DNA of 27,213 nt, from the NCBI GenBank assembly GCA_045594165.1, contig JAZNXZ010000026.1:1-27213 (forward strand), read 5' to 3'. A program made the translations under genes and the position numbers. The DNA comes from Candidatus Scatosoma sp. (lineage in GTDB: Bacteria > Bacillota > Clostridia > Christensenellales > Borkfalkiaceae). Every line of letters starts with the position of its first letter. The stretch's first letter is position 1. The notes under the pieces were generated by a model. It saw only the letters and a list, made by a program, of their open reading frames with translations, made no database searches and was not told where the DNA came from. Shown here piece by piece: positions 7,536 to 24,554 of this stretch.

Positions 7536-7557
7536 TGTTTTTTACCCCTTTACGTCC

Positions 7558-8412
7558 TTATTTTACAAATTCGTCGCCGACTTCTTCAAAGCCTGCGTCT
7601 TTTAATAACCCTTTGAGTGCCGCCACCGCCGCGTCAAACGCCTCGTCTGCGGTACGGAATTCAAACTCGTGTTTCATAACCGTCTTGTCAATCAGAGAAT
7701 ACCCCTCGAAAATCGAAAGATGAGGTTCAAGCGTAAACGTCTTATCTGACGTAATCGTTTTCAAAATATCGCCGATCTTGCCGTCGCCAACGCCTGCAGG
7801 TACAAGCGAACCGCTCTCTACGATAACGTCCTTGACGTGATAATAATCGATTTTACCTGCAAAAATACGTTGCGTATCCTCTGCTTTTTCGCCGCATTGC
7901 AAGTAGTTTGCAGGATCGTAAATATGGTACAGACCAGGCACGTTTTCCATGATATCCACGACACGTGCCGCCACGTCGCCGTAAATATCCTTTTCGTTTT
8001 CGTGGTACAAGCCCACGTTGTATTCCTTGGCGATCGCTACCATCTTTTTAAGACGGCTGATTACTTCGTCGCGTTTATCATACGCCTGAAAAAAGCTGAA
8101 CATACGGATTTTATCCGTGCCGAGCGCGTTTGCGATTTCGCAAGTATGGCGCAAAATTTCTTCCGTCTTTTCAAACGGGTCGTCAATGTGCGATTTACCG
8201 ATAGGCGAACCGATTGACCATACCGCCAAGCCGTTGTCCGCCAAGGTTTGACGAATCTCTTTTGCCTCTTCCACCGTCAGCGTCGTAACGTTTTTACCGT
8301 TGACCGTACGCATTTCCATATAGGGTACGTTGTTGCGCTTTAACGCCGCAATCTGTCCGTCCAACGCGCTGGACGCCTCGTCGCTGAATGCACAAAGTTT
8401 TACTTTAATCAT
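7558..8412 (-). CDS. Sugar phosphate isomerase/epimerase (xylose isomerase-like TIM barrel)
   Basis: SIGSPIGK, HENE, YDPANY, HVKD..G.GDG, TLEPH metal-binding pattern. Confidence 0.88.
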   Translation of the reverse strand: MIKVKLCAFSDEASSALDGQIAALKRNNVPYMEMRTVNGKNVTTLTVEEAKEIRQTLADNGLAVWSIGSPIGKSHIDDPFEKTEEILRHTCEIANALGTDKIRMFSFFQAYDKRDEVISRLKKMVAIAKEYNVGLYHENEKDIYGDVAARVVDIMENVPGLYHIYDPANYLQCGEKAEDTQRIFAGKIDYYHVKDVIVESGSLVPAGVGDGKIGDILKTITSDKTFTLEPHLSIFEGYSLIDKTVMKHEFEFRTADEAFDAAVAALKGLLKDAGFEEVGDEFVK

Positions 8413-8425
8413 ACTTATTCTCCTA

Positions 8426-9991
8426 TTAAATACCGTAATTATTAAATCTTTCTTCGTAAAGATAATATTTTTCAGACAAACGGTTTAAGAGCATCACGGG
8501 GATCACCTCTACGTGATGTCTGCCGTATTCTTCCACCATAATCAAAATGCGGTTGTGTGCCGAAATCTTTTCAGGCGCGGTAAGCACAATGTCTACCGCC
8601 TCCGAGTTGTACGTATTTTCGCTAATGCACCACCACTGCGGAACGAACACGTCAAATTCTTCCGCGCTTGCCGACCAACCGTCGGGCAACAGCAACGAAA
8701 CCTTGACGTTGTGCGATTGTTGACCGAACGCTTTCAAACGGTTTTGGAACATAATGGAAATACGTTTTTCTTCCCCTGCCTTGGCATACGGGCCGTCGTG
8801 AACGGTCACGAGGGCGTACGTCGCGCCGCAATTTTTAACAATCGTGTTCGGATTTTTTAACGTTAAGACGGAAACCGCCATTTCTTCCGATTCTTCGCTC
8901 TGTCCGTAAGGCAATGCAAAATATTCGATATCGCTATCCGTAAATTCGCTGTCTTCGCCGTAAACGAATTCGGGTACCTTTGCAAAGTGCCCTTTCATCT
9001 GATAGGTAACCATGGGCGCAAGTTTTACGACCTTTTCCGTCAAATTCGTGCACGTGCCAACAAACGGGAATGCCGCACCTTGGGTGATACTGCACGTCAC
9101 GATTTTATCGCCGATATATTCTTCCCAATCCTTAGGAATACCTGCCGTGCCGTACATGATACCCAGTACCGAGCCGACCGTACCTGCCGTACAATCGGTA
9201 TCGTCGCCGCAATTCACAGCCAAAAGCATGGATTTTTTGAAATCGCCTTCGCCGTACAAAAGACCGAGCGTCGCATAACCCACGTTGGAGGGCGCGCAGA
9301 ACCAACCGTCGCCGATGTCTTCATTTTCCTTGAAAATCGCGTCGCAAGCGTCCGTTGCAGGCACGCCTTTGTCGTAGCAATCCAAAATCAAACGTACGGT
9401 GCGCGCCATACGGCAATCGTACGGGATTTTTGCCAAACCGATTTCGATAAGCTTGCGCAAATCGCTAACCACGAACGCCGCGCTTTCCAACGCCGCAACG
9501 AACATAGCGGCATACGTACCCTCGCCGTTGCCGTGGTCAACCTTGGCGTCCTCAATAGCGTATCTTACCGCCATGTCGGGCTGTGCAGGGAAAAGCGTCG
9601 CCCAAATTTCCGTACGGATCCAAGCGCCGTTAGAATGTTTTAATCTGTCGTTGTTGACCGTTTCACCCGAAAGCGGAGGCACAATACCGATTTGCATGTT
9701 TTTAAGCGCAACCGAGTATTCGCCTGCGTACATGGTAATATAGGAAAGCCAATAATCACCCAAAACGTCCGCCGTGAGGTGTTTGGGACCTTCCATTTCC
9801 ATCGCGTGCAACCAAACGAGCTGTAAATCCAAATCATCGTTGGGGAGCGGCTCGCCCTTTTCGGTTACAAAACCCGTAATGTTCAATTTTTTGCGTACGC
9901 CCTCGAAAGGACCGCCCAACGTGCCGCCGATATTTTTACCGATCCAGCAAGCACGAACTTTGTCTTTGTAAACGTCGTAATTGAGTTTCAT
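8426..9991 (-). CDS. ADP-ribosylglycohydrolase family protein with a C-terminal extension, 521 aa
   Basis: GKNIGGTLG, PNDDLDLQL, SNGAWIR, NCGDDTDCTAGTVG motifs. Start moved to ATG 9991 (AAAGGTGG RBS). Confidence 0.88.
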   Translation of the reverse strand: MKLNYDVYKDKVRACWIGKNIGGTLGGPFEGVRKKLNITGFVTEKGEPLPNDDLDLQLVWLHAMEMEGPKHLTADVLGDYWLSYITMYAGEYSVALKNMQIGIVPPLSGETVNNDRLKHSNGAWIRTEIWATLFPAQPDMAVRYAIEDAKVDHGNGEGTYAAMFVAALESAAFVVSDLRKLIEIGLAKIPYDCRMARTVRLILDCYDKGVPATDACDAIFKENEDIGDGWFCAPSNVGYATLGLLYGEGDFKKSMLLAVNCGDDTDCTAGTVGSVLGIMYGTAGIPKDWEEYIGDKIVTCSITQGAAFPFVGTCTNLTEKVVKLAPMVTYQMKGHFAKVPEFVYGEDSEFTDSDIEYFALPYGQSEESEEMAVSVLTLKNPNTIVKNCGATYALVTVHDGPYAKAGEEKRISIMFQNRLKAFGQQSHNVKVSLLLPDGWSASAEEFDVFVPQWWCISENTYNSEAVDIVLTAPEKISAHNRILIMVEEYGRHHVEVIPVMLLNRLSEKYYLYEERFNNYGI

Positions 9992-10050
9992 AAAACCACC
10001 TTTCACTAAATATTGAAAACGGATTTTTGCCATATTTTCCGTTCTACGAT

Positions 10051-10079
10051 ATTATAACACACAAAATCGGTTTTGTAAA
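10051..10079 (-). promoter_or_regulatory. Sigma-A promoter of the ARH-isomerase-oxidoreductase operon
   Basis: TTTACA-17 bp-TATAAT with extended -10 TG. The palindrome ACAAAA-N4-TTTTGT (10061-10076) overlaps the spacer and -35. Confidence 0.7.
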
Positions 10080-10122
10080 TACTTTCAGGAAAATTTCTCG
10101 CGCTAATTTTAAGGAATTATAG

Positions 10123-10166
10123 AAAAACAAAAGGGTTGAGCATGATTGCCCAACCCCTTGTTTTTT
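10123..10166 (-). terminator. Intrinsic terminator after the giant gene
   Basis: Minus strand AAGGGGTTGGGCA-ATCA-TGCTCAACCCTTT followed by TGTTTTT. Confidence 0.85.
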
Positions 10167-10203
10167 ACCTAAAAACCGATGTTATTCAGTTTTTCATTTT
10201 GCC

Positions 10204-13200
10204 TTACGCTGCGTCGTTACCGCTGGAAGGATTTGCCCAGTAAACGTTAATTACTTCAGGATTATCATTTTGTGCTGCCAAACCTACGCCGAACGCCGTT
10301 GCGCCTTCACCGTACCATCTCAATTCGTAAACGGTATTTGCCACGAAGCTGGTTGCCTGCGTGCCGTCCATGTTGTATGCAACTACGTTAAGGCCCGTAG
10401 GGCAACCGTTTGCATTACCGTCGGAAAGGAGGTAACCACCACCGCCTTGGTTTACGCCGTCGATATAATACCAGCAGAAGAAGATGTAGGAGCTGTAACC
10501 CGTAATATCTCTGGATACTGCAAACTGAATGCTTGCGTAGTCGTCTTCTGCGTTCTTATAAATCATGGTCTTTTGATTTTCCATGCTAAGACCGAGAACA
10601 CTACCTGCGCTCCACATACTCGTACGAGCGTCTTGCGTTGCCGTGAATACCGTCGTGCCTGCTTCGAAACCGAGTTCGGTTACGTCGCCTGCATACTTGG
10701 AAGTCACACACTTGGTCGTATTTTCGAACTGTACCATCGTAGCGTCCTGCGTATAGGTGATACCCGTAGGCCATTCGGTAAGAGCCGTCGTGCCATCATC
10801 CGAGTAACCAATTACGTTAACGCTTGCAGCCTTGATGGAAACGTTGTCGTATACGATATTTTCGCCCGTATGTTGGTAACCTAATGCAACATTCAACGCA
10901 ATACCCGTTGCCTCAACTTCAACGTTCGTAAACGTGCTTACGTTAGCCGTCTGGAAACGGTTAGAGAACAACGCAACGTTCTTCCAGTCTTTGTGTTCCA
11001 TTTGGTCGATAACAACCTTAACGTTGGAAACGGTAATGTTATCCGCCCAGTGAGCAAAGAGCCCGAAGTATTGACCCCAGTTTTGGTTATTGTTATAACC
11101 CTGACCGCAGCTAGAACCGTGATATCTAACGCCTGCGAAGGTTACGTTCTTAACCGTTGCGCGATACATACCGCCGAAGATACCGCCTTCGGAAACGATT
11201 ACGTTGTTAACAATATGACCGAGACCGTCGACCGTACCACGGAAGTAGGACTTGTATTGAGTGTAACCTGCTGCGAAATAAATGCCCGAAGCGTCGATAT
11301 CGTTAGCAATTACGTAGTAACCTTCTACGTCGTTGCCTGCAACGTCAGAGTTACCTTGACCTTGCTTAACGCCGTCAACCGTTCTACCACCTACACCGAG
11401 AGCCTGCAATTCTTGCGCAGTCTTAATAATAGCGTCTGCACCGATTGCTTTCAGGTAATAAGTATCGTTTTCATGGGTGTATACGACAACGTCGTATTCG
11501 GTACCGACAGCAAAGTCTGCGTCGTACATACCGGTATTGCCGTCAAGACTGCCAACGGTGTCGCTGTAAATGAGCGTACCATCGACATAGATATATTTTA
11601 CCGTACCGTTGATATCATCGGGCAAGGTATACGAACCCGTTGCCGGCAAGAGGATGATATATTCATCCGATTCGTATGCGTTACCGTAGGTGATATCGCC
11701 GAAGTTCAAGATTGCAGAGCTTTCTGCACTAGTATCAAACGTACTTACCGCAATTGCCGACGTGTCGCCGTTGAGGAATACACGCAAGGTGTATACCGTA
11801 TTCGCTGCGAGCGAAGCAACATCAGCACCCTGTGCATCGAGAATGTAAGCCTTTCTTTCCGATGCGCCGTTTGCAGGCGTACAGCCAGCTGCGTTAACGG
11901 TGTAGTTACCAGTAAGAATGCTTGCATTCGTACCGTATGCCCATACGCAGAGCGAGTAAACCGTACGGTCGCCCGTGAACGAGAATTCTACGTCTACGTA
12001 GTCGTACTTAACGTTGCCGTATAAGCCGACGCGGTTGCCCCAAGCGTCGCCCGCAAGCGATACCTGCGTAACAGTCGAACCTGCGTCGAAGCCGAGCGCC
12101 GTTACGTCGCCTTCATACTTAGGAAGAAGAGCACCCGTTGCACTGGTATATACGTCGTTCTGTACGTCGAAGTTGCCCCATCTTGCGCTGGAAATGTAGT
12201 AGGTTTGTGCCGTACCCGTACCGAAGTGCAAGAATTTCAGCGTTTCGCCTTCTGCAAAGCATACGCGAATCGTATAGAACGTATTTGCCTCAAAACCGCT
12301 AGTGTACTGCGCTGCAAAGGTGTTGCCGTTTGCATCCCATACGTGTACGCTTCTGATTACGCTGTTGGTAGGATTCATCTGCGCACCGTAGATACCAAAG
12401 CTACCTTGCGTACCGCTACCGTTGGAAGGCCATGCCGTAAACGCACTTACTTTCACGGTAGGATATACGTCGAATTCTACGTAATCGAAATTATCCGAAT
12501 CTGCAGGGATAAGGATTCTATCCGTCCAAAGGTTGGTATTTACGATTTCGTAAACCGCATCGCTTGCCTTGAAGCCCATCGACGTCGTATCGCCGGTGTA
12601 TGCCGTCAATTCTACGTTGCTGGTGTTTTGAATTGCAACACCCGTAACGTCAGGAACCTTAACGGTTGCCGACATAACGTAGGTATCGCCATCCGTAATA
12701 ACGGTCATAACTTTACCTGCGCCAGCCGTCAATTCAACGTCGATTGCAACGTCTTTGCCGTTGAGGCTGCCGGTGGTGCTGCTGTAAACAACAGCACCGT
12801 CAACCATAATTGCTTTTACCGTACCTTCGATTGCATCAGGCAACGTGAACGTGCCGTCTTCAACCGAGATTTCTACTGTTTCATTAACTTCGACTTCGTT
12901 ACCGAAGGTAATGTCACCGAAGTTCAAGATTGCCGAGCTTTCTGCACTGGTATCGAACGTACTTACTGCAAGCGTAGACGCGTCGCCGTTGAGATATACA
13001 CGCATGATGTATACCGTATTCGCCGCATACGCATTTACCGTATTGCCGTTCGTATCGAATACCTGAATCGTTCTTGCCGATGCGTTGTTTGCAGGTACGC
13101 CGCCCGTAGGAGTAACGGTGTAGTTACCGGTAAGAATGCTTGCGTCCGTGCCGTATGCCCATACGCAGAGCGAGTAAACCGTACGGTCACCCGTGAACGA

Positions 13201-16200
13201 CCATTCAACGTCTACGTAGTCGTACTTAATGCTAGTGTTGATACCAATACGTTCATTCCAAGCATCTGCAATCGTTACCTGCGTAACCGTCGAACCAGCG
13301 TCGAAGCCAAGTGCCGTTACGTCGCCTTCGTACTTAGGAAGAAGAGCACCCGTTGCATTGGTGTATACGTCGTTTTCTACGTCGCACGTACCCCATCTTG
13401 CAGCCGTTACGTAATACGTCTGCGCTGCGTTAGGTCCGAAGTGAACGTATTTCACCGTTTCGCCTTCAACGAAGCAGATACGAACCGTGTAGAACGTGTT
13501 TGCCGCGAAACCGCCAGTATACTGCGCTGCAAAGGTGTTGCCGTTTGCATCCCATACCTGAACGTTTCTTGCCAAACCGTCGGAGGTGTTCATCTGCGAG
13601 CCGTAAATGGTCATACTGCCTTGCGTGTTGCTACCATTGGAAGGCCAAGCAGTGAAGACCGTTGCCACAGTCGTGTAAATGTCGAATTCTACGTAATCGT
13701 AGTTATCCGAATCTGCAGGGAAGAGAATTCTATTGTCCCAAGTACTAGACGATACTACTTCGAAGATAGGCGTGCCGTCTGCGAAGCCGAATGCCGTTTC
13801 GTCGCCTGTGTACTGCGTCAATTTAGCATAGCTCGTATCCAAAGGCTGGTTAGGAATAATCGCATGTGCAACCGTTTCAAACGTTACGCCGTCAGGGAAG
13901 CTTTCCATCAAAGCCGCCGTGTTCTGAACGCCGTCAGCATACGAGTCAGCCGTGTAACCGATTGCCAAGTAGCTTGCCGCCTTGATTACAACGTCTTCGT
14001 ATACGTTGCCAGTATTGTGGTGAGTACCAAGCAAGGTCTTCAAATCCATGTAGCTTGCGTCTACCATAATGTTACGGAACGTCGCTGCACCGGAAGCACC
14101 GCTATTTACAAGCAAGCCGTCTCTCTTATACGTCCATACGCCAGCAGGAGCTTTTGCCAAGCTGATTTCGATATCTTCAATCGTCGTGTTAGGAGCCACA
14201 TACGCCAAGATAGATGCGTAGCCACCAGTTTCGCTCGATACCGTATTAGGAACCGAATCCAAGAGTTGTGCGTCAACCAAGATAAGGTTTCTGATCGTTG
14301 CACCGTTTGCCGTACCGAAGATACCACCGTCCGAAACGCGCATGTTGATAAGCTGATGTCCGTTACCGTCGAATACGCCACGGAACTCGTACGAGCCTGC
14401 CACACCGAACGTACCGGACGCCTTAGCATAACCTGCCGTGATTACGTCGGAGTAGTCGTCTGCATGTTCAAACGTGATATCGTTTGCAAGTACGTAGTAA
14501 CCATTAGCGGAGTCGGTTGCCGTCGTACTGTTGCGGCCTCTACCGATAAGTTTGAGGTCTTCCGCCGTCTTGATGTACGTGATTACGTTAACGTTGGTGA
14601 AGCTGATTGCCGTTGCACCAGACGAGAGGTTAACCGTCGTCGTCGTCGCGTTGATTGCCATTGCGTCAATCGTAACCGTTAACTGACCAGCCGTTTCAAC
14701 CGTAAATTCGGTTTCTTCCATACCTGCTACGGTCATCGTCCATACGCTACCTTCCGTGAAGGCTGCGTCTTCAAACGTAATCTGATGGTTAACGTCGTTT
14801 TCGTATGCAGTTTCAATTTCTGCAAAGACTGTCAAATCGCCAATTTCCGTGGTACCGAAGTATACTGCGTTGTCTACTACCGACCAAGGTTCACCCATAG
14901 CCGTTACGTTATCCGCGGATACTTCGCTCCACAACGTGTAGCTATAGCAGGTTGCCGAAGCGTTGTTCTTAACTGCTACGATATTGGATGCGCCTGTTAT
15001 AATTGCGTGTGCATTTTCAATCGTGCCGTTGTTATTGTACGTTATCGCTGCAATCGTGTTGTCAATCAACGTAACGCCTTCTGTTACGATTACGTCAACC
15101 ATTACGTTGCGTACCGTACCAACGTTTTCTTGTGCAACGAAGCCCGTGAAGAGGTAATCATTGTATTCTCTACCAGCATGCGAATCGTTAACTTTTACTT
15201 TAGCATATACGTTTTCAACCGTACCGTTGTTGGTGTATACGATACCACGCTTGCTACCGCCCGATATGAGCGTAAAGGAGTTAAGATCGAAACCGATGTT
15301 TTCAACCGTACCGTTGTTGACGTAGATGAATGCAGGATTCATTACGCTGACACCATTAATCCAGTTGTTCGTTACCGTTTCACCCTCAATATTGGTAATC
15401 GAGTCGTGGTGAATATACGTATTTTTAATTACGTGGCCTTGACCATCGAGAATACCGTAGAATACTGCGATACCTTTCAAGGATGCACCGCTCATATCCA
15501 AATCAGACGTGAGAACGTAATGACCATAAAGGTTGGATTGAAGAATCGACTGCAATGCGTTTACGTTAGCAACGTTTGTGCTGTTGAGTTCAATTACATT
15601 TTGTACGATGTTGATAGGCAAGCTAATCTTCGTCGTACCTGCCGTAAGCGTGAGCGTCTTAACGCCACCGTCTTTTGCCGTGAACGCTGCCAAAGGCATA
15701 GCCCACGAAGACGAGTCAATCGTGCCTTCGTAAATAACCGTGTCAACGTATTTAACAGTTACGGTCTTGCCTTCGAGATAGCTGTAAACTTCGCTGAGGT
15801 CAACCGTCGCCGTATCAGCAATTACAACCGACGTACCAGCTAAGGTATGACCAAAGTTTACGTCTACTGCGTTCGCCTCGATTTCAACCAAACCGTCGTA
15901 AACTTCGTAGTTGCCGAACGTCATAACGTTTGCATCCGTTACGTTCCAAGGCGTAGCCCACGATCTTACGTTAGCGCCGTGCGTTGCGTCGTCAAGCAAG
16001 TTGTTCGCTTTTACAAACGCCGCTGCATTATCGTAGTCGCCGCTTGACGTGTTGGTGTTGCAGTTTCTAAATACGCGTACGATTTCCGTCGAATCGTTGT
16101 TATCCAACAGGATTGTGTCGTTCACTTCAACGCCCAATACGTAGAAGCCGTCCGTTTTCGTGTATGCAAGATTCGAAATCTTAGCGTACGTCAAGTCTGC

Positions 16201-19200
16201 AAACGAAACAGCCGATACGTCTACGATGATGTTATTCATTACAGAATAACCGCCCGCATTCGTATTGGTATTCGTCATGAATACCTGCGTTTCCGTACCG
16301 CTAACACCGCTTTCCATCGAAACAACCTGTACGTAGATGTTTTCGTACGTACCGCTACCACGGTTTGCAATGAGCGACGTCTGCGTGCCAATCTTCGCAC
16401 CCGTAAACGCTACGTCTTTAATCGTACCGCCACCCATCGTAATGATGAACGCGTTGTATTGACCGCTGGTTTCCATGCCCTTAATTGCATGGCCGTTACC
16501 GTCGAATACGCCCTTAAAGCCTGCGTTTTTACCTGCGCCCCAATCTTCCCAGATTGCGCCTTCGGTGTCAGCAGGTACGTCTACACCCGCCGTCAACAAC
16601 TGATAAAGCGTACCCTTACCGCCTGCGTACTTCGCGATAGGCGTCCAAACTTTGTTGTATTCGATATCGTTGCCGAGTGCGAAGTAACCGGAAAGAACTG
16701 CATTCTTCTGCAATTCGATTACTAAGCCAGCCGCTACCGAGTTGTCTGCTGCAACGGATTGCCATTGATCAAGTTCGTCTGCACTGTCGATGATCATCGT
16801 GTAAACGTTTGCGTTTACCGTGTATATCGTATTCGCCGTTTCAATCAAGAGCGCCTTGTTTTCGCCAAGGTGCGCCATCTTGACAGGTCTGCTTGCCATC
16901 GCAAATTCGCCAGCAGTTGCCGAGCTACCGCTGAATACTGTCAAATCTTCAACTGCTGCGTCGGAAGATTCGATCTTAATCGAGAGGATATCACCCGAGA
17001 TACCGTTGATACCGCTAAGGTCAAGCGTGTCGGTGATTGCCTCAATCGTTACCGTACCTGCAAGCGCGGTATGCGCTTTACCTACGGTAAACGTCATTTC
17101 TTGTACATAACCTTCGTTGGAGGTTACTACTACCGTGAACTGCGTGCCGATTGCAACGCTAGAAGCTACGCTAACCGTAGCATCGCTAACCGTTACGCCG
17201 TCTACCGTTTCTGCCAAATCATACGTGTACGTCAAAGCGTCATAACTACTGCTTACCGTCACGTCGAACGATTTGCCAATTTCCACTTCCGTCTTCGTGT
17301 TGGTAATCGTGAACGGATGCTGGAACGTAATGCCGTCAGGGAATTCGCCAAGCATTGCCGCCGTATTCGCGCCGTTGGCGGTATACGAGTCACCCGTGTA
17401 ACCGATTGCAAAGTAACCATCTGCAATAATCGTTACGTTTTCGTATACGTTGTCTTCACTATGAGTGATACCCAAGATGTTATCAATCGTCAAACCGGTT
17501 GCATCAATCGTAATGTTACGGAAAGTAGCAGCACCCTCAGAACCGGTAACGATGAGCATACCCATTCTCTGCCAAGAATATTCGCTGGGAACAGATGCTA
17601 CGGTGATGTTGATATTTTCAAACGTAGAGTTGGGAGCCCAGTGACCAAGCAAGGCAATGTAACTACCGTTGTTGTAGGTTGTTCCCGATGCAGGAAGACC
17701 GTTTCTGATATATTCTACGTTGGTGAAGTTTACGTTCTTAACGATTGCGCCGTCCATTGCGCCGAAGATACCGCCGTCTGCTACGCGGATACCGTCGATG
17801 GTATAACCGTTACCGTCGAACGTACCCTTAAATCTGTTGCTAACGCCAACACTGTTAACGTAATCATGAGGATAACCTGCCATAACTACGTCGCTCATGT
17901 CGTCTGCATGTTCGATCGTGATGTTGTTTGCAAGCATGTAGTAGCCGGTCTTGTCGCCCTCATTTGCGTTAACCAAACCACCTACGCCGATTTTCTTGAG
18001 ATCGTCAAGCGTTTCAATGTATTCGATTTGATCACATACGGCTGCAGTGAGCGTGTATTCGTACATTTCGTTTGCAATGATCAAATCTTGGCTAGGTGTG
18101 TTTGCAAGAGCTGCAACTTCCGTGCTGTCGCAGGTGATTACGCCGTCGGTAATGCTACCTACGCCCGTTGCTGCATTGTAAAGCACAACGCCGTTCATCT
18201 TCACATATTCAATTTCGCCGGTAATTGCGGTGGGAACATTAAACGTACCTACCGTCTTTTCAATAATTACGCTTTCGTCGAGCGTTTGTTTCCACTTCGC
18301 TACCTTAAAGGTACGCGTATCTACATAGCTGCCGTTGTCCGCTACTACCGTGAAGGTCGTGTTGGGCAATACGCTGTCTGCTACCGATACAACGTCACCG
18401 TTTTCACCGCCGAGCGTTACGCCCTCTGGTGCGTTTGGAATGGTGAACGTAACCGTACCCGATTCGTTATTCGTCGTGAGGGTAAGCGAGTCGCCGCCTG
18501 CGATTTCCGTTTCCGTATTCGTGAAACCGAATGCGCTGATAATCGTTACGCCTGCGGGTTTCACGCTGCTAGGCGATTGCTTGCTGCCATCGCTGTAGCT
18601 GTAGATGATACCTGCGTTCTGTTGCGAAACCTTCATAAGGAGGGTTACGTTATCACAGGTAAGCGCACCTGCATCCACGTTAGAACCGAAGATACAAGGA
18701 ATCGTGTTTTCAACGCGCGTCGTTGCATTTGCAACGTTGAGCGTTACGTTTCTGTAAATCAATCTGTTATGCGTGCCGTTTGCAATCAACAAACCGGTAT
18801 GGAAGTAGGAGGTATCGTGGTCTTCAATATCCGTGATACGGGTAAATTGAGCCGAAACGTTTTCAATCGTCGTGTTACCTCTTGCTGCGTTTGCAAACAA
18901 CGCGCCGTAGTTCCAACCTGCCGTTGCCGACAATTCGATTTCTACGCCCGTGAAGTTTACGTCTTTAATCGTTGCATTCTTCAAGCCACCGAAGATACCG
19001 CTGTCGCCTGCGATAAGGTTCGAAATCGTGTAACCGTTACCGTCGAACGTACCGATGAAGTTGGAGTTGCCATAGCTATGACCAGGCGTGAAGAGTTTGC
19101 CTGCGCAATCAATATCGTTTACAAGGAGGTAGTAACCTGCGATATCGTTGCCTACTGCTAGCGAATTGTCAGCCCCTACGCCGAGCGCCGCGAGCTGTGC

Positions 19201-22200
19201 AGCCGTCTTGATTACAGACGTTACACATACTACGTCAAATACAATGCTTTCACCGGTTTCGGTGTTTTGACAAACAACTGTCTTCTGCGCGCCTGCTGCC
19301 ATAGCGCCTACTTTAACGTTAATCTTACCGTTGCTGTAAGCGGTCATGGCCGTAGAAACGCCGTCTACCGTTACCGTATAGGACGCACCCTTAACGATGC
19401 CTTCGCTATACAACCAAGCGTCCATTTGGCCGTTGATAACGTATTGTCTCTTTGCAACCTTCGTATAATTCGTGAGAACACCCGTAGGCCACAAACCGTC
19501 CGTATTTTCTGCGTTAACCGCTACGTTTGCGAAAGAGGATGCAGACGTCGTACCGAATACGGTCGTCGCCGTCGTGGTATTTTCGCCGTTTACCGAAACC
19601 GTTACGTTGTCGATCGTCGAATTCGCCGTCGATGCCGCCAAAACCGAACCCGTAACCGTTACGTTCGTGAAGTTAACGTCCTTAACCGTTGCGTTGCTGA
19701 GCGCGCCGAAAATACCGTTTGCGCCAGCCGTGAAGTTAGATACGGTCTTGTGGTTACCGTCCAACGTGCCGCTGAACGAGCTGTTCGAAATCGTTGCACC
19801 GTCGCAGTCGATATCGTTTGCAAGTACGTAATAACCGCTGCCGCTGATAGCGTTCAAGCCGCTAACGTTCGTGATATAACCGCTGATTGCCAAAACGTCC
19901 ATAAATTTAACGTTTGCAGTCGTCGAGTTAAGTTCTACAATATAGGTCGCGCCCGCGCTAAGCGTTGCGTTAATCGTTGCCGCGCCGTCCGTTACCGTGA
20001 CGCTGTTTACCGTAGGCTTGTCGCTAGCGTCGTTAGCGTTTACAACTTTCGCCGTATACGTGCCAGCCGTCAATGCGTTGTCGTTGAGCGTGAAGCTGCT
20101 GCCAGCAACAACCGTCTGTTTGTCGTTAACCGTCGTCGAGGTTACGCTAGCAAGAATGCTTTCGATACCGCCAACAAACGTCGTCGCGTGCTTGGTTGCG
20201 TTCGTCGTATTTCTAATGGGACGACCTTCACCGTAGCTGTTAATATTCCAATGACTAACGATTTCAAGGAATTCCGCACCATACTGTCTTACATACGCAG
20301 GCGCATTGAACGTTGCCGTAGCGTAGTGACGCGTGGTACCACTGTCGTCCTCGTGTACTTCGTTTTCACCATGTACGTACATAAGCAAGTACAACGGCGT
20401 CGCTTTTTCAAGCTTGATATTCCAGTAATACGTATCGTAGTTAGGATCGTTGGGATCAAGGGCAGCAAGTGCCTGATCGATAAGATCTGCCCAATTTTTC
20501 AACGTATCTTCAGACATAGCCGTCGAATTCAATACGTCGTCGTGCCAAATGGACGGATCGTTACTGCTTACCGAGGGATCATATTCTTTCGTGGTTTTGA
20601 AATCATTCAAGTTTGCCCAAGCAAGCCATGCATCATAGTACGCCTGCATCTTTTCGCTGCCTGCGCCGTATGCACCATTGAAGTAGTCTTCAATCCAACC
20701 GTTCCAAGTGTCATCGGTAGGCTCTGCATCCCACGTCAATTTACCCATGATGTATTCTTTCAAACGGGTAAAGTTCACCTGCGAACCCATCATTTGGTTG
20801 AACATATGGTTTACGCCGTTATCAACAGCAACGCCGTAGTTTGCGCGGAGTGCGTTAAGAGAGTTATAAGGCACGAAGAACTGCGTTACCATGCCATAGT
20901 AACCCCACCAAAGAATGTCCATTTCACCGCTACAATAGGTAGTGTTAAGCGTATTGAACCCTTGCAAGTTTGTCAAGATGTTGTCGTTAACCAAGGAAGA
21001 CGTATCGGTTACGGGCACCGTATAGTCACCTGCCGTTTCTGCAAACCAAAGCTCGATATGCTTACCGTATTTTCCCAACTCAGTTGCATAATTAGCCGCA
21101 CCCGTAGGAGCAGGGTTGGTCATGTGATAGAAGAGCGACGAAATCTTGAACGTATCTTTACGTGCGTCGCCAGCAGTATTCAATGCCGAATAAACGTCTG
21201 CCGCTACGTCCAAAAGGAACTTCAACAAGTTATCAGAAGGATTGCCTGCCGCCGAACACGTATCGCATTCACACCAAACTCTGTGGTCCATGTGCGAGAA
21301 GCCAAGACGGGTAAGCTCGGGATATTCCTCCAATCTTGCAAGCATTTCGTTTACAACGACCGCCTTCATGCTCGCATAAGCCGTGCTATTGCCGTGTGCG
21401 GTATAGCAAAGTTCCGCAGGAAGATATTCGGGCGAGGACACCAACGTCTTGGAAACCACGTTGCCAAATTCATTGTATACAACGTCCGAATACGTTGCAA
21501 ACGGGTCGATTGCGCCATTGTTTACCGCATCGTCATGATACGGGTTTTCAATCGTTCTGTAAACCTCATTTTTGAATAATGAACCCAACGTTACCGTTGC
21601 GTACCATTGTTCATTGGTACCTTCTGTCGGATCATAGTCATTATTAGTACGGCTTTCCTCTTTGAAAGTGGTCGTTCTTAACAAATCGTCTACGACCAAT
21701 ACGGAGTTGTGCGCAACACCCATGTGGTATGCCGCTACTTGCACGTAATCCGTATTATTGATACCCAAGGGAATCATGCCGTCCGTATACGATTCTGCAC
21801 CGTATCCGTCTACTGCATTACCTTGCAATCTATTATAAGTAATGTCGCGCACGAAAGACTCGTCGCTGAAAATGATTTCTACGTCATTATCAACCATGTA
21901 CGTATCTTCCATCAGATATTCGTAACCAACGTGTCTGGAAAGGAATTCTTGTACGCCGTACAAAATCGCCTTGCCTTTCACGCCGCGGAAGTATGCGTTG
22001 CCCGTCGTTTCGTCAACAATCAACTGCGACGCCGTTTCCGCCGTAACCGACCACCCTTCTACTGCAACCGCCTCCGTCGTTTCACCGATAGAGATGTATT
22101 TATCAGAGCCGCTTACCGACGTTACGATCGGCAATTCCATGCCCGTTGCTTCCGCCAAAACTTTTTGCATAAGTTCTGCAGCTTCTCTTTCGATTTCCGC

Positions 22201-23247
22201 ATTATCCGAGCTTTCGTTGATATAAATCTTATAATCGGAGTTCGCGACATAATGCGTCGTGGAAACGATTTGTTCAACTGTATCTTTGGTAATGGTTGCC
22301 TGCGGGAATTCTCTAACTGCAGACGCACCAGTTGTCACCTCAACCGACGCCGTAATAACAGATTCGCCTTCTGCCTTTGCAGTAAGGGTGCTGCCGCTAA
22401 CGCCAATGACATCCGTGTTATCCGAGTCGTACGTGATATTGAAATCGTAGCCCCAGCCTTCCAATTTCTCTTTCGCCGTGTCAGAAACCGCCATGCCACC
22501 AATCTTGAGCACAGCCATCTTGTCGGACGAAGCGTCCAGCGAGTTTTCAATAAACGCCGTACCCGAATTATTGTTCTGCATAAACGAAACCATACCCGCT
22601 TCATTGAATACGAGTTCTACTTTCGTTTTGTTAACGACGTCTTGAATCAGGTCGGTAACGGTACCTTTGGGATCGAGATATTCCATCATTGCAACGTAAC
22701 CGATACTTCTGGTCGCGCTGTTTTCGGTGTAATAATACGTCGTATTACCCTCGCCGTCTGTAACCTTTACGTAGCTGCGCGCAACGATTGGACGGTTATA
22801 ATACTCGTCCGAAAGATTGTTGTACGTACCGTCTTGGTTTTTCGAACCCGTCAAAACGCTCGTCCACATCGTTTGTTCTTGATCCTGCCATTTCGCTACA
22901 GGAACGTCCAAAACTCTGTCCGTTTCATGCGTGAGCGTCTGCGAACCAAGATAGTCGGCAGGAATCATGAGCGTACCGTAACTAACGTCGTTCGTTTCAT
23001 CCCAGCCTGTAACCGTTGCTTTCGTATCACTGTCCAGAGTCGTATGGAAACGAATACCGTTAGGATTCGAGTTTCTTACCGACGCCGAATCCTCAATAGA
23101 AAACCCTTCCATCGTGCTGTACGTGGTTACAGCATCTGCTCCTGCCACTTCATGCTCAGATTGCATGAATGCCATTCCACCGACGACACAAGAAGCCGAT
23201 GCGCAAAGTGCCAAAGAAATAATCGCTTTTCTAATACTCTTTTTCAT
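10204..23247 (-). CDS. Giant secreted multidomain protein (~4347 aa): signal peptide, N-terminal domain of unknown function, Ig-like domain, DUF4838-like putative glycosidase, seven beta-helix-like modules, CBM-like beta-sandwich repeats
   Basis: Uninterrupted 13-kb ORF. AAGGAGGAG RBS before ATG 23247. Signal peptide MKKSIRKAIISLALCASASCVVGGMAF...AGA. WCECDTC motif at 21256-21276. Seven GYYxLxNDI...FxGxxDGNG motifs. Confidence 0.9.
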   Translation of the reverse strand: MKKSIRKAIISLALCASASCVVGGMAFMQSEHEVAGADAVTTYSTMEGFSIEDSASVRNSNPNGIRFHTTLDSDTKATVTGWDETNDVSYGTLMIPADYLGSQTLTHETDRVLDVPVAKWQDQEQTMWTSVLTGSKNQDGTYNNLSDEYYNRPIVARSYVKVTDGEGNTTYYYTENSATRSIGYVAMMEYLDPKGTVTDLIQDVVNKTKVELVFNEAGMVSFMQNNNSGTAFIENSLDASSDKMAVLKIGGMAVSDTAKEKLEGWGYDFNITYDSDNTDVIGVSGSTLTAKAEGESVITASVEVTTGASAVREFPQATITKDTVEQIVSTTHYVANSDYKIYINESSDNAEIEREAAELMQKVLAEATGMELPIVTSVSGSDKYISIGETTEAVAVEGWSVTAETASQLIVDETTGNAYFRGVKGKAILYGVQEFLSRHVGYEYLMEDTYMVDNDVEIIFSDESFVRDITYNRLQGNAVDGYGAESYTDGMIPLGINNTDYVQVAAYHMGVAHNSVLVVDDLLRTTTFKEESRTNNDYDPTEGTNEQWYATVTLGSLFKNEVYRTIENPYHDDAVNNGAIDPFATYSDVVYNEFGNVVSKTLVSSPEYLPAELCYTAHGNSTAYASMKAVVVNEMLARLEEYPELTRLGFSHMDHRVWCECDTCSAAGNPSDNLLKFLLDVAADVYSALNTAGDARKDTFKISSLFYHMTNPAPTGAANYATELGKYGKHIELWFAETAGDYTVPVTDTSSLVNDNILTNLQGFNTLNTTYCSGEMDILWWGYYGMVTQFFVPYNSLNALRANYGVAVDNGVNHMFNQMMGSQVNFTRLKEYIMGKLTWDAEPTDDTWNGWIEDYFNGAYGAGSEKMQAYYDAWLAWANLNDFKTTKEYDPSVSSNDPSIWHDDVLNSTAMSEDTLKNWADLIDQALAALDPNDPNYDTYYWNIKLEKATPLYLLMYVHGENEVHEDDSGTTRHYATATFNAPAYVRQYGAEFLEIVSHWNINSYGEGRPIRNTTNATKHATTFVGGIESILASVTSTTVNDKQTVVAGSSFTLNDNALTAGTYTAKVVNANDASDKPTVNSVTVTDGAATINATLSAGATYIVELNSTTANVKFMDVLAISGYITNVSGLNAISGSGYYVLANDIDCDGATISNSSFSGTLDGNHKTVSNFTAGANGIFGALSNATVKDVNFTNVTVTGSVLAASTANSTIDNVTVSVNGENTTTATTVFGTTSASSFANVAVNAENTDGLWPTGVLTNYTKVAKRQYVINGQMDAWLYSEGIVKGASYTVTVDGVSTAMTAYSNGKINVKVGAMAAGAQKTVVCQNTETGESIVFDVVCVTSVIKTAAQLAALGVGADNSLAVGNDIAGYYLLVNDIDCAGKLFTPGHSYGNSNFIGTFDGNGYTISNLIAGDSGIFGGLKNATIKDVNFTGVEIELSATAGWNYGALFANAARGNTTIENVSAQFTRITDIEDHDTSYFHTGLLIANGTHNRLIYRNVTLNVANATTRVENTIPCIFGSNVDAGALTCDNVTLLMKVSQQNAGIIYSYSDGSKQSPSSVKPAGVTIISAFGFTNTETEIAGGDSLTLTTNNESGTVTFTIPNAPEGVTLGGENGDVVSVADSVLPNTTFTVVADNGSYVDTRTFKVAKWKQTLDESVIIEKTVGTFNVPTAITGEIEYVKMNGVVLYNAATGVGSITDGVITCDSTEVAALANTPSQDLIIANEMYEYTLTAAVCDQIEYIETLDDLKKIGVGGLVNANEGDKTGYYMLANNITIEHADDMSDVVMAGYPHDYVNSVGVSNRFKGTFDGNGYTIDGIRVADGGIFGAMDGAIVKNVNFTNVEYIRNGLPASGTTYNNGSYIALLGHWAPNSTFENINITVASVPSEYSWQRMGMLIVTGSEGAATFRNITIDATGLTIDNILGITHSEDNVYENVTIIADGYFAIGYTGDSYTANGANTAAMLGEFPDGITFQHPFTITNTKTEVEIGKSFDVTVSSSYDALTYTYDLAETVDGVTVSDATVSVASSVAIGTQFTVVVTSNEGYVQEMTFTVGKAHTALAGTVTIEAITDTLDLSGINGISGDILSIKIESSDAAVEDLTVFSGSSATAGEFAMASRPVKMAHLGENKALLIETANTIYTVNANVYTMIIDSADELDQWQSVAADNSVAAGLVIELQKNAVLSGYFALGNDIEYNKVWTPIAKYAGGKGTLYQLLTAGVDVPADTEGAIWEDWGAGKNAGFKGVFDGNGHAIKGMETSGQYNAFIITMGGGTIKDVAFTGAKIGTQTSLIANRGSGTYENIYVQVVSMESGVSGTETQVFMTNTNTNAGGYSVMNNIIVDVSAVSFADLTYAKISNLAYTKTDGFYVLGVEVNDTILLDNNDSTEIVRVFRNCNTNTSSGDYDNAAAFVKANNLLDDATHGANVRSWATPWNVTDANVMTFGNYEVYDGLVEIEANAVDVNFGHTLAGTSVVIADTATVDLSEVYSYLEGKTVTVKYVDTVIYEGTIDSSSWAMPLAAFTAKDGGVKTLTLTAGTTKISLPINIVQNVIELNSTNVANVNALQSILQSNLYGHYVLTSDLDMSGASLKGIAVFYGILDGQGHVIKNTYIHHDSITNIEGETVTNNWINGVSVMNPAFIYVNNGTVENIGFDLNSFTLISGGSKRGIVYTNNGTVENVYAKVKVNDSHAGREYNDYLFTGFVAQENVGTVRNVMVDVIVTEGVTLIDNTIAAITYNNNGTIENAHAIITGASNIVAVKNNASATCYSYTLWSEVSADNVTAMGEPWSVVDNAVYFGTTEIGDLTVFAEIETAYENDVNHQITFEDAAFTEGSVWTMTVAGMEETEFTVETAGQLTVTIDAMAINATTTTVNLSSGATAISFTNVNVITYIKTAEDLKLIGRGRNSTTATDSANGYYVLANDITFEHADDYSDVITAGYAKASGTFGVAGSYEFRGVFDGNGHQLINMRVSDGGIFGTANGATIRNLILVDAQLLDSVPNTVSSETGGYASILAYVAPNTTIEDIEISLAKAPAGVWTYKRDGLLVNSGASGAATFRNIMVDASYMDLKTLLGTHHNTGNVYEDVVIKAASYLAIGYTADSYADGVQNTAALMESFPDGVTFETVAHAIIPNQPLDTSYAKLTQYTGDETAFGFADGTPIFEVVSSSTWDNRILFPADSDNYDYVEFDIYTTVATVFTAWPSNGSNTQGSMTIYGSQMNTSDGLARNVQVWDANGNTFAAQYTGGFAANTFYTVRICFVEGETVKYVHFGPNAAQTYYVTAARWGTCDVENDVYTNATGALLPKYEGDVTALGFDAGSTVTQVTIADAWNERIGINTSIKYDYVDVEWSFTGDRTVYSLCVWAYGTDASILTGNYTVTPTGGVPANNASARTIQVFDTNGNTVNAYAANTVYIMRVYLNGDASTLAVSTFDTSAESSAILNFGDITFGNEVEVNETVEISVEDGTFTLPDAIEGTVKAIMVDGAVVYSSTTGSLNGKDVAIDVELTAGAGKVMTVITDGDTYVMSATVKVPDVTGVAIQNTSNVELTAYTGDTTSMGFKASDAVYEIVNTNLWTDRILIPADSDNFDYVEFDVYPTVKVSAFTAWPSNGSGTQGSFGIYGAQMNPTNSVIRSVHVWDANGNTFAAQYTSGFEANTFYTIRVCFAEGETLKFLHFGTGTAQTYYISSARWGNFDVQNDVYTSATGALLPKYEGDVTALGFDAGSTVTQVSLAGDAWGNRVGLYGNVKYDYVDVEFSFTGDRTVYSLCVWAYGTNASILTGNYTVNAAGCTPANGASERKAYILDAQGADVASLAANTVYTLRVFLNGDTSAIAVSTFDTSAESSAILNFGDITYGNAYESDEYIILLPATGSYTLPDDINGTVKYIYVDGTLIYSDTVGSLDGNTGMYDADFAVGTEYDVVVYTHENDTYYLKAIGADAIIKTAQELQALGVGGRTVDGVKQGQGNSDVAGNDVEGYYVIANDIDASGIYFAAGYTQYKSYFRGTVDGLGHIVNNVIVSEGGIFGGMYRATVKNVTFAGVRYHGSSCGQGYNNNQNWGQYFGLFAHWADNITVSNVKVVIDQMEHKDWKNVALFSNRFQTANVSTFTNVEVEATGIALNVALGYQHTGENIVYDNVSIKAASVNVIGYSDDGTTALTEWPTGITYTQDATMVQFENTTKCVTSKYAGDVTELGFEAGTTVFTATQDARTSMWSAGSVLGLSMENQKTMIYKNAEDDYASIQFAVSRDITGYSSYIFFCWYYIDGVNQGGGGYLLSDGNANGCPTGLNVVAYNMDGTQATSFVANTVYELRWYGEGATAFGVGLAAQNDNPEVINVYWANPSSGNDAA
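11440..12621 (-). repeat. Intragenic tandem duplication, copy 2; boundaries approximate
   Basis: ATGALLPKYEGDVTALGFDAGSTVTQV and FTGDRTVYSLCVWAYGT are shared exactly with copy 1. Confidence 0.9.
12650..13836 (-). repeat. Intragenic tandem duplication, copy 1 (two beta-sandwich modules plus linker domain); boundaries approximate
   Basis: Matches copy 2 at a 1215-nt offset, e.g. an identical 38-nt tract at 13520-13557 vs 12305-12342. Confidence 0.9.
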
Positions 23248-23260
23248 CCTTTTCTCCTCC

Positions 23261-23371
23261 TTAATCGTCCCAAACTTCGCCACCGTAGTTGTCGTTATCC
23301 GATAACGTCACAATGTCGTCTTGCTCGAACATGACCACCAACAGCTTAAGCTCTTCGTAGTTTTTCATCAT
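23261..23371 (-). CDS. Small acidic peptide, 36 aa (MMKNYEELKLLVVMFEQDDIVTLSDNDNYGGEVWDD)
   Basis: Not in the ORF track. Strong AGGAGG RBS 6 nt before the ATG. Its stop TAA overlaps the AAGGAGG RBS of the giant gene. Confidence 0.75.
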   Translation of the reverse strand: MMKNYEELKLLVVMFEQDDIVTLSDNDNYGGEVWDD

Positions 23372-23420
23372 AAATACCTCCTATTCTGATGAATGCCTGT
23401 GTTGTGCTATATTTTTTTAT

Positions 23421-23475
23421 TTTTGCCAAATTGATACTTTTGCAGTTTTGCAAAATTGACGTTTTGCATTTTGTC
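23421..23475. promoter_or_regulatory. Cluster of TTTTGCA repeats, putative regulator binding sites
   Basis: TTTTGCA at 23438, 23446 and 23462, with variants at 23421 and 23469. Inverted repeat TGCAAAA-N6-TTTTGCA at 23449-23468. Confidence 0.45.
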
Positions 23476-23571
23476 ACAACGCGTCGCAAGAGTGCGCCCT
23501 CGTCTTTATATAACGCGCACGTATGCGTGTAGAGTGCCAAAATACAATATTTCACAATACTGCTACCATAT

Positions 23572-23600
23572 ATTAAACCATATCTTGGGGTATTTGTCAA
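23572..23600 (-). promoter_or_regulatory. Sigma-A promoter upstream of the small ORF and giant gene
   Basis: TTGACA-17 bp-TTTAAT with extended -10 TG. Confidence 0.7.
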
Positions 23601-23651
23601 TACTTAAAAATTGCAAATACATGCTCAAAAATATCATCTTTTCTTTTTTGC

Positions 23652-23695
23652 AAAAAAATAAAACGGTTACCTCGTAATTCGAAAAATAACCGTTT
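23652..23695 (-). terminator. Probable terminator of the AraC gene
   Basis: AAACGGTTA...TAACCGTTT inverted repeat followed on the minus strand by TATTTTTTT. Confidence 0.55.
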
Positions 23696-23716
23696 ATAAT
23701 ATAAAAACTGATGATA

Positions 23717-24538
23717 TCAATGCTTGTATTTTAACCGATACGCATAGGGAGAATCTTGATATTTTTCCTTGAATTGCTTAATAAAATACGCTGACGATTC
23801 GTAGCCCAACATTTCCGCGATTTCATTGACGGAATCCTCCCCATATAAAAGATATTCCCTCGCCCTTTTTAAGCGCAACTCTCTGCGGTACTGTATGGGC
23901 GACATCCCCATACACCGTTTGAATATTTTTCGGAAATACACTTCGCTGATGTGGCACATCTTCGCCAGGCTCTCCACCGTCGTGTTTTCCTGAAAACGCT
24001 CTGTGAGATATTCTACGCCCTTTTGTATCCAACCGAAATGTTTGCTGTTCGATTTCCCCAACTGTTCCAGTACCCCCAGCTCGCTGATTAACGTATACAA
24101 AACGCAATCGTATTTCACGGGCAACTGCGGCACGGACAAAGAAACCTGTTTGACATCGTTAAACAGTAATTCAAAAACTTTATTTTTGGGGAAATGCAAT
24201 ACATCGCAGGAAAACTCAATATTTTCCCCATTTTCGTCAAACAACGAAAAGTGCACGCCTATCGTTTCCGTTTTTTCTTCCTCCACGTCCAAAAAACGGA
24301 TATCGTATTCGCTACCTCTGGGCGTATAGACAAGATCCCCTTGTTGCACCTTAATTTGGTCCCCATTTTTGTTGGTATACACCGCACCTCCGCGAAGATA
24401 CAGTAAAAACAGATGCTCCTTTTTAGGCGTCCCAAAACAATCCCAGGTTTTATCGTGTTTCCAAACCTGCTTCAATACGCTCATAAATTTTACGGTATAC
24501 TGCGTTTGATAAAAATCAGAAATCTTTTGACAAACCAT
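23717..24538 (-). CDS. AraC family transcriptional regulator
   Basis: N-terminal cupin-like domain; C-terminal LAKMCHISEVYFRKIFK...GMSP...SVNEIAEMLGYESSAYFIKQFK. ATG 24538 has a GGAG RBS; starts at 24550/24553 are possible. Confidence 0.92.
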   Translation of the reverse strand: MVCQKISDFYQTQYTVKFMSVLKQVWKHDKTWDCFGTPKKEHLFLLYLRGGAVYTNKNGDQIKVQQGDLVYTPRGSEYDIRFLDVEEEKTETIGVHFSLFDENGENIEFSCDVLHFPKNKVFELLFNDVKQVSLSVPQLPVKYDCVLYTLISELGVLEQLGKSNSKHFGWIQKGVEYLTERFQENTTVESLAKMCHISEVYFRKIFKRCMGMSPIQYRRELRLKRAREYLLYGEDSVNEIAEMLGYESSAYFIKQFKEKYQDSPYAYRLKYKH

Positions 24539-24554
24539 AACTTTCTCCATCAAA

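Follow-up and report, generated by a model that had tools for sequence, protein, structure and literature searches.

The stretch analysed here (the window) is a 27,213-nucleotide contig (C26; JAZNXZ010000026.1) of Candidatus Scatosoma sp., whose genome assembly comprises 1.37 Mb in 200 contigs and is 72% complete. Its subject is a small gene encoding a 36-residue acidic peptide directly in front of the gene of a giant secreted protein; we propose that the peptide is the precursor of a ribosomally made peptide with post-translational modifications (RiPP), matured by enzymes encoded elsewhere in the genome. All features of this unit lie on the minus strand of the window. The peptide gene (23261..23371, 36 codons plus TAA) translates exactly as MMKNYEELKLLVVMFEQDDIVTLSDNDNYGGEVWDD and is preceded by the ribosome-binding site (RBS) AGGAGG at 23377..23382, separated by a 5-nt spacer from the ATG at 23371. 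The leader, residues 1-24 (23300..23371), contains Tyr5 in the context YEEL, a hydrophobic, β-strand-like stretch and then DDIVTLS; it ends with a near-invariant serine, Ser24 (codon 23300-23302), which is the putative phosphate acceptor. Residues 25-36, DNDNYGGEVWDD (23264..23299), form a variable acidic tail, the candidate core and predicted docking segment. The TAA of the peptide gene (23261-23263) overlaps AAGGAGGAG (23254..23262), of which it forms the first part and which serves, as read from the sequence, as RBS of the giant gene; the ATG of the latter follows at 23247. This arrangement suggests translational coupling of the two genes. A preliminary description of this DNA had already reported the AGGAGG motif, the 36-residue open reading frame (ORF) and a stop codon built into the next RBS, and all three are confirmed.

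The window ORF is almost certainly a real gene of a peptide family characterized by the leader MKKxYxx(P)-hydrophobic-F-xxx-D[IV][IV]xxS and an acidic tail that varies between members and frequently includes Trp. A profile made from peptides of other genomes only found it at E = 3.4e-8 among the 30,805 stop-to-stop frames of its own genome; this profile contained no row from that genome, and the match is far beyond chance. The same profile retrieved the paralogues on contigs C123 (E = 6.5e-10) and C27 (7e-4) and, more weakly, the one on C136 (0.19; E = 1.7e-6 with the full profile), bringing the number of copies in this genome to four. Each of the three paralogues has its own RBS and stands directly before the gene of a secreted protein: the C123 peptide (47 residues, MFKKAYDTPSVYLVVFDVDDIVRTS...NWWEN) before one of 1622 residues, the C136 peptide (43 residues) before one of 1410 residues, and the C27 peptide (10753-10890, about 45 residues) before one of 501 residues. 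The preliminary description had assigned the peptide to a family of the form MKKxYxxPxxE...DIxTxS near large secreted proteins and had suggested a profile search of the genome and its relatives. That search found further members in both; the assignment was right, since the outside-only profile still finds the window ORF, and the association with large secreted proteins is likewise borne out in this genome and in its relatives.

The family is large. HMMER, run exhaustively over 1.84 billion representative proteins, returned 7144 clusters at 50% identity (E <= 1e-3), with members of nearly always 32-65 residues. When 100 genomes of the same bacterial family were scanned with the profile in six frames, up to 15 small frames of this type were detected per genome. 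Precursor genes number 2-15 per genome and are scattered. A word-based homologue search with the 47-residue paralogue as query gave only 5 close matches. The family is unnamed and is absent from Pfam and NCBIfam: the window peptide matches no family of either database, its exact 36-residue sequence is present in the protein collection as a called gene product without a name, none of ten family members looked up carries one, a look-up in the ESM Atlas led to unnamed clusters only, and a full-text literature search with the motif strings of the family returned nothing relevant. An 84-codon, TTG-started ORF in another frame of the minus strand (23346-23600), which overlaps the start region of the peptide gene and carries no family signal, is probably spurious.

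An alignment of 31 peptide sequences (A2) bears out the earlier notion of a bipartite peptide built like a RiPP precursor, its leader conserved and its tail variable. The signature starts with Met, Lys-Lys, Tyr, two residues and usually Pro, continues with an alternating hydrophobic stretch up to a Phe, three residues, an invariant Asp (Asp19) and two branched hydrophobic residues, and ends with two residues, Ser and a variable tail in which Asp, Gly and aromatic residues abound. Tyr5 and Ser24 are each found in at least 90% of the rows. Tyr5 corresponds to the Tyr of the YxxP-type recognition motif, which in the window copy reads YEEL; loss of the Pro is common in this genus. Two proteins found with the peptide profile depart from the usual architecture. 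P0010 (380 residues) has seven profile matches, owing to a tandem repeat of ~53 residues that contains YQHPDVLVTSQ, and may be either a precursor with several cores or a repeat protein unrelated to the family. P0018 (65 residues) has two tandem leader-like units, ..YQTPKVEMLQFRENDVIDIP.. and ..YQTPMAEIIQFQENDIISIP, both of which end in IP and not in TS.

Linear polyphosphorylated peptides (LPP), first described in May 2026, are encoded by lppA-K-B-S-D-N in Bacilli, among them Paenibacillus alginolyticus (Popov et al., Nat Commun 2026, PMC13381572). In this pathway, LppA is the precursor, the RiPP recognition element (RRE) LppB binds its YxxP leader, the HprK-like kinase LppK places several phosphates on core Ser3, the SipW-like leader peptidase LppS cuts after Thr-1, LppD is the exporter and LppN an NTP transferase (PMC13381572). 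The published precursors have 35-200 residues, a conserved N-terminus YxxPxVLxHQxIxFETxxS and variable C-termini; Tyr-16 and Pro-13 mark the LppA leader, and the change of Pro-13 to Ala weakened RRE binding (PMC13381572). The statement of the preliminary description that no modifying enzyme is nearby holds for the 27-kb window and fails for the genome, where contig C27 (locus L035) carries at 7355-12409 a complete kinase-PqqD-peptidase-exporter row (K-B-S-D in the LPP lettering), followed by the fourth family peptide and the 501-residue secreted protein, which contains the partner domain described below.

The four cassette genes are homologous to those of known maturation systems. The HprK-like kinase (243 residues, 7355-8086) has the P-loop GRSGIGKST and matches NCBIfam ScmC (E 4e-8) and HprK (3e-3); its AlphaFold2 (AF2) model has a mean confidence (pLDDT) of 94, and HprK/P structures are its top folds in the PDB (E 3e-6, probability 1.00). 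The PqqD protein (87 residues, 8099-8362; PF05402, 61.6 bits) has a lasso-type PqqD chaperone as its best NCBIfam match, and its Asn33 and Asp72 fall, by eye, at positions called conserved in the LPP paper (PMC13381572). A single stand-alone PqqD gene is present in every genome tested. The next gene encodes a candidate SipW-like serine peptidase that matches archaeal-type signal peptidase I (160 residues, 8364-8846; TIGR02228, E 3e-5, 23.8 bits) and in which Ser29 of GVSMLP, His67 and Asp82 were matched by eye to S29, H68 and D93 of LppS. The last encodes an MsbA-like exporter (8824-10542) with ABC_membrane and ABC_tran domains, whose best NCBIfam matches are MsbA-related. Searching the PDB by sequence with the kinase and the peptidase yielded nothing of use. 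A cyclophilin gene (6796-7317) lies just upstream of the cassette. A radical-SAM pathway was considered and rejected: the genome has one SPASM protein, on contig C88 and unlinked to the cassette, and the peptide-bearing genomes of genus g12 have none.

Several observations connect the peptide family with this cassette, and we judge it likely that the window peptide is a substrate of the C27 enzymes. Among 101 genomes of the bacterial family (peptide threshold E <= 1e-3), peptide and kinase are both present in 38, the peptide alone in 3, the kinase alone in 7 and neither in 53, counts given without a P value because the relatives are not independent; presence and absence also agree within the mixed genera g6, g12, g14 and g21. 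Family peptides moreover lie inside cassettes in unrelated assemblies. Two metagenome contigs have the order peptide-peptide-ScmC-PqqD-147-residue protein-ABC-NTP_transf_5, i.e. peptide-peptide-K-B-S-D-NTP_transf_5, and two others ABC-NTP_transf_5-ScmC-peptide-GT8-PqqD-135-residue protein, i.e. D-N-K-peptide-GT8-B-S. The kinase and the peptidase of these metagenome cassettes are 36% identical to their C27 counterparts, the kinase of the full cassette being a PF27840 protein. A peptide gene stands directly before the kinase gene in two genomes of the family (G020, G040) and before PqqD in another (G013). In the variant cassette L148 (606-6061), where a family-8 glycosyltransferase (GT8) lies between precursor and PqqD, the precursor tail is a GETT/GETP repeat, a sequence that hints at glycosylated products.

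The K-B-S-D row is kept in 54 of 71 loci from species-representative genomes, mostly metagenome-assembled genomes of gut origin (animal and human) that carry the names Candidatus Scatosoma or 'Clostridia bacterium'. Within the retrieved DNA, none of these 54 related loci has a precursor near the cassette; therefore, one cassette would serve scattered precursors. In the genome studied here, one of the four copies, that on C27, adjoins the cassette, and the window copy lies on another contig. The LppN-like NTP transferase family (PF14907, NTP_transf_5) is present away from the cassette in three relatives (G005, G078 and G068) and inside the cassettes of loci L143 and L148. G005 has two tandem NTP_transf_5 genes (its contig C39, 3516-5420), which lie ~20 kb from a pair of peptide and partner-domain genes and on another contig than its K-B-S-D row.

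The giant protein (10204..23247) has 4347 residues and a signal-peptide-like N-terminus, and its only Pfam regions are DUF4838 and Peptidase_M26_N. Behind the signal peptide, at about residues 40-209 (22621..23130), lies an unnamed β-sandwich domain of ~170 residues that is common to the proteins adjoining family peptides and that we call NDOM. Its alignment (A3) is marked by the motifs (G)ASVR, G(I/L)RF, YG.L..P, ARAY and RS..YVA, which in the giant protein read SVR, GIRF, YGTLxxP, ARSY and RSxGYVA. NDOM has no Pfam family. The AF2 model of a 221-residue fragment is a β-sandwich with a mean pLDDT of 70 (72-91 in blocks over residues 1-150, dropping to 60-63 by residues 151-170), and a PDB fold search with it gave generic immunoglobulin- and fibronectin-III-like matches only, none at E <= 1e-3. 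In AlphaFold DB clusters, NDOM sits at the N- or extreme C-termini of diverse secreted enzymes; in peptide-adjacent proteins it is N-terminal, internal or C-terminal.

Adjacency of NDOM and peptide genes was counted in five of the 101 genomes, where 28 of 29 NDOM proteins have a peptide gene directly up- or downstream: 4/4 in the genome studied here, 9/9 in G005 (100% complete), 6/6 in G078, 7/7 in G098 and 2/3 in G068. Over all 101 genomes, 32 have both NDOM and peptide, 5 NDOM only, 9 the peptide only and 55 neither. In G005 and at several loci of G098 the order is reversed: a C-terminal NDOM is followed, at a distance of about 100 nt or less and in some cases with an overlap of a few bases, by a peptide gene. 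Three G005 loci have this order, with NDOM at the C-terminal end or close to it (peptide genes at L048 6954-7091, L049 3732-3860 and L050 3055-3198, the NDOM of the last being residues 395-577 of 631), so that the peptide gene is found at that end of the partner gene where NDOM is encoded. The tails differ as well: 22 of 26 NDOM-adjacent peptides have Trp-containing acidic tails, as against none of the 6 distinct precursors that lie beside cassettes only, a split that is approximate because a narrower domain profile missed several NDOM copies that the A3 profile found.

Two further loci illustrate how the neighbourhood can vary. Loci L150 (3004-8032) and L151 (379-2233) come from two different samples and carry an identical 47-residue peptide of the C123 type, followed by proteins of 1622 and 564 residues, respectively; the length of the partner gene therefore varies between strains or assemblies. 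At L008 (1501-1863, genome G070), two tandem family peptides with Pro/Phe-type tails precede a protein without signal peptide that is, by eye, α-L-fucosidase-like, an exception to the rule that the partners are secreted. The AraC-family regulator gene upstream of the peptide gene in the window (23717-24553), which the preliminary description had counted as part of the unit, does not belong to it as a rule: no more than 2 of the 4 loci of this genome, and 3 of 20 larger related ones, have an AraC gene nearby. On C27, an AraC gene in convergent orientation occupies 12459-13394. Scanning 23200-23760 for promoters and terminators revealed no consensus sites, and thus no consensus promoter between the AraC gene and the peptide gene of the window.

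Prediction of the complex between residues 40-260 of the giant protein (alignment A3) and the whole 36-residue peptide (alignment A2), which had been suggested beforehand, placed the tail on NDOM. The interface score ipSAE was 0.84, 0.84 and 0.82 in three runs, as compared with 0.08 for the best of 3 controls; the runs share at least 89% of their contacts, at a partner pLDDT of about 51. In the tool's calibration, 58 of 80 solved complexes reached this mark, as did 2 of 110 mismatched pairs; these counts apply only roughly here because our own alignments were used. On the peptide side, the predicted interface comprises residues 25-34, i.e. the tail right after Ser24, and no residue of the leader. 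On the domain side, it comprises fragment residues 19-27, 52-60, 72-82, 89-97 and 103-110, lying within residues 58-149 of the giant protein, and includes the conserved Arg58 and Arg66, the arginines of the SVR and GIRF motifs. Since NDOM has no solved relative, it is unlikely that the prediction draws on the memory of a known complex. We give an even chance to the core binding NDOM, and of the three roles suggested for the peptide in the preliminary description, that of a partner of the giant protein's N-terminal domain is the one favoured by the prediction.

Altogether, we lean slightly towards a mechanism in which the peptide is an LPP-type RiPP precursor, the enzymes are encoded once in the genome, on C27, and the exported core docks on the NDOM of the adjacent giant protein. 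By analogy with LPP, the stand-alone PqqD-type protein would bind the N-terminal leader through the Tyr5 motif and the hydrophobic strand, and the HprK-like kinase would phosphorylate Ser24. The SipW-like serine peptidase would then remove the leader by a cut a few residues before Ser24, and the core, short, acidic and with Trp, would leave the cell through the MsbA-like ABC transporter. Once outside, it is predicted to dock on the NDOM located behind the signal peptide of the co-translated giant protein, touching that domain's conserved arginines; docking on the neighbour's domain is proposed because of the gene adjacency together with the complex model. Such docking could tether, adapt or switch the surface protein; it might anchor it to the envelope via the modified Ser, complete or cap a binding site, or report on secretion.

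A number of observations weigh against this mechanism. The leader deviates from the LPP consensus, with F-xxx-D[IV][IV]xxS in place of VLxHQxIxFETxxS (neither HQ nor FET is present); Tyr and Ser are 19 residues apart here and 18 in LPP, and the window copy, with YEEL, has lost the Pro of YxxP. The PqqD protein does not clearly fall into the LPP clade of RREs, as it matches the lasso RRE TbiB1 at 4e-6 and the presumed LPP chains 9x90_B and 9x8z_B at E 0.003 and 0.025, and the peptidase score remains below the NCBIfam cut-off of 51.85 bits for TIGR02228. PF14907 was not found in the 72%-complete genome itself. The co-occurrence counts are not phylogenetically independent, and three peptide-positive genomes (G013, G022 and G089) have no detectable kinase. 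As for the docking, NDOM was not matched in 9 of the 41 peptide-positive genomes, and the complex score is a measure of model confidence obtained for one pair, with a partner of low pLDDT.

The nearest alternative keeps the pathway and gives up the docking: the mature peptide would act alone, be it in signalling, as an antimicrobial or as part of the matrix, and its adjacency to NDOM genes would reflect co-regulation or joint duplication. The evidence for cassette membership is the same under this view, and the Trp-less tails beside cassettes (0/6), together with the nine genomes without an NDOM match, indicate that some family members work without NDOM. For the window peptide we nonetheless consider it unlikely, as co-regulation alone hardly explains that 28 of 29 NDOM proteins have an adjoining peptide of their own, each with a different tail, nor that the complex prediction selects the tail rather than the leader and places it on conserved arginines. 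Conversely, the peptide might be an unmodified small partner of the giant protein, independent of the cassette, such as a cytoplasmic pilot or chaperone that acts before Sec export. The tight translational coupling, the predicted contact with the first domain of the giant protein and the missing Pro of the recognition motif would all agree with this, yet the peptide lacks a signal peptide, unlike the exported protein whose domain is its predicted partner; several genomes encode family peptides within cassettes, the family co-occurs with the kinase, and the most conserved part of the peptide, the leader, makes no predicted contact with NDOM. We regard this explanation as improbable.

A regulatory upstream ORF, also among the roles suggested beforehand, would control translation or transcription of the giant gene, its product having no role of its own. 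The stop codon embedded in the giant-gene RBS is what such an element could look like; however, conservation at the N-terminus and variability near the stop are the opposite of what arrest peptides show, numerous copies are located downstream of the partner gene or within enzyme cassettes, and thousands of clusters share the same motif at the protein level. This reading fits poorly and is very improbable. The least credible candidate is a lasso peptide precursor, in spite of a YxxP-like leader with Thr/Ser near its end and a PqqD protein that scores best against lasso-type chaperones. The lasso B2 protease (PF13471) was not found in the genome studied here (G000) or in G005, G078, G098 and G068, four of these five being 93-100% complete, while the lasso cyclase was not searched for separately, and in the cassette a serine peptidase takes the place of B2. 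The lasso reading was rejected on these grounds; with a serine peptidase present and no B2 protease found, the product is presumably linear.

The data on this locus and its relatives show an LPP-type pathway that is very widespread among uncultured gut Clostridia, its precursors forming thousands of clusters, and they draw attention to one peptide family and one domain family that Pfam and NCBIfam lack. The predicted docking turns the 'function unknown' of LPP into a testable role for these peptides, and the pairing may explain how giant surface proteins without known anchor are held or controlled. One may go further and picture gut Clostridia as using matured, exported phosphopeptides as specific adaptors of their largest surface proteins, each giant protein having an NDOM as receptor and a cognate RiPP core encoded beside it. 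We put this forward as a tentative generalization that is possible although rather doubtful. If true, it would be the first case of a RiPP that targets a domain of the producer's own secreted protein, and it would give LPP-type pathways the function, and the giant proteins the anchor, that each has lacked so far.

Other known systems resemble parts of this arrangement. Paeninodin-type phosphorylated lasso peptides likewise combine an RRE-bound [Y/W]xxP leader with an HprK-like Ser kinase and an ABC exporter, but differ by the B2 cysteine protease, in place of which a serine peptidase is found here. In SynChlorMet systems, ScmC (TIGR04249; Pfam ScmC) is the best family match of the C27 kinase and ScmD (TIGR04248) a weak match of the PqqD protein; the scores are, however, far below the family cut-offs, and the C27 cassette has no radical-SAM enzymes. 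Cohesin-dockerin pairs and SLH domains, which dock surface proteins of Gram-positive bacteria non-covalently, and donor-strand complementation in pilus assembly share with the proposed docking only the functional principle of a short segment placed, here by prediction, against a β-sandwich domain; neither by sequence nor by fold was NDOM found related to cohesin, dockerin, SLH or pilins. In contrast to those modules, the segment here is a separate gene product, proposed to be enzymatically matured and exported by an ABC transporter, and is not part of a Sec-exported protein.

The closest known system is LPP, and PMC13381572 is the only paper that a literature search on LPP terms retrieved. The precursors of both are small and appear to share a plan in which a leader of the YxxP type at the N-terminus (YEEL in the window copy) is closely followed by a conserved Ser, whereas the C-terminus is hypervariable; the enzyme set and gene order of C27 are those of lppK-B-S-D, and the cassettes of relatives also include NTP_transf_5. 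Apart from the leader sequence, the two differ in their hosts, which here are uncultured gut Clostridia (Candidatus Scatosoma and relatives) and not Bacilli, and in their genetic organization, as the cassette here usually lacks an adjoining precursor and the precursors are scattered beside secreted proteins with the partner domain. The LPP authors describe the biological role as unknown and mention neither scattered precursors nor a pairing with a partner domain (PMC13381572). What the preliminary description took for its best candidate for an undescribed system probably belongs to a pathway type that is already known, and the pairing of precursor and domain is its new part.

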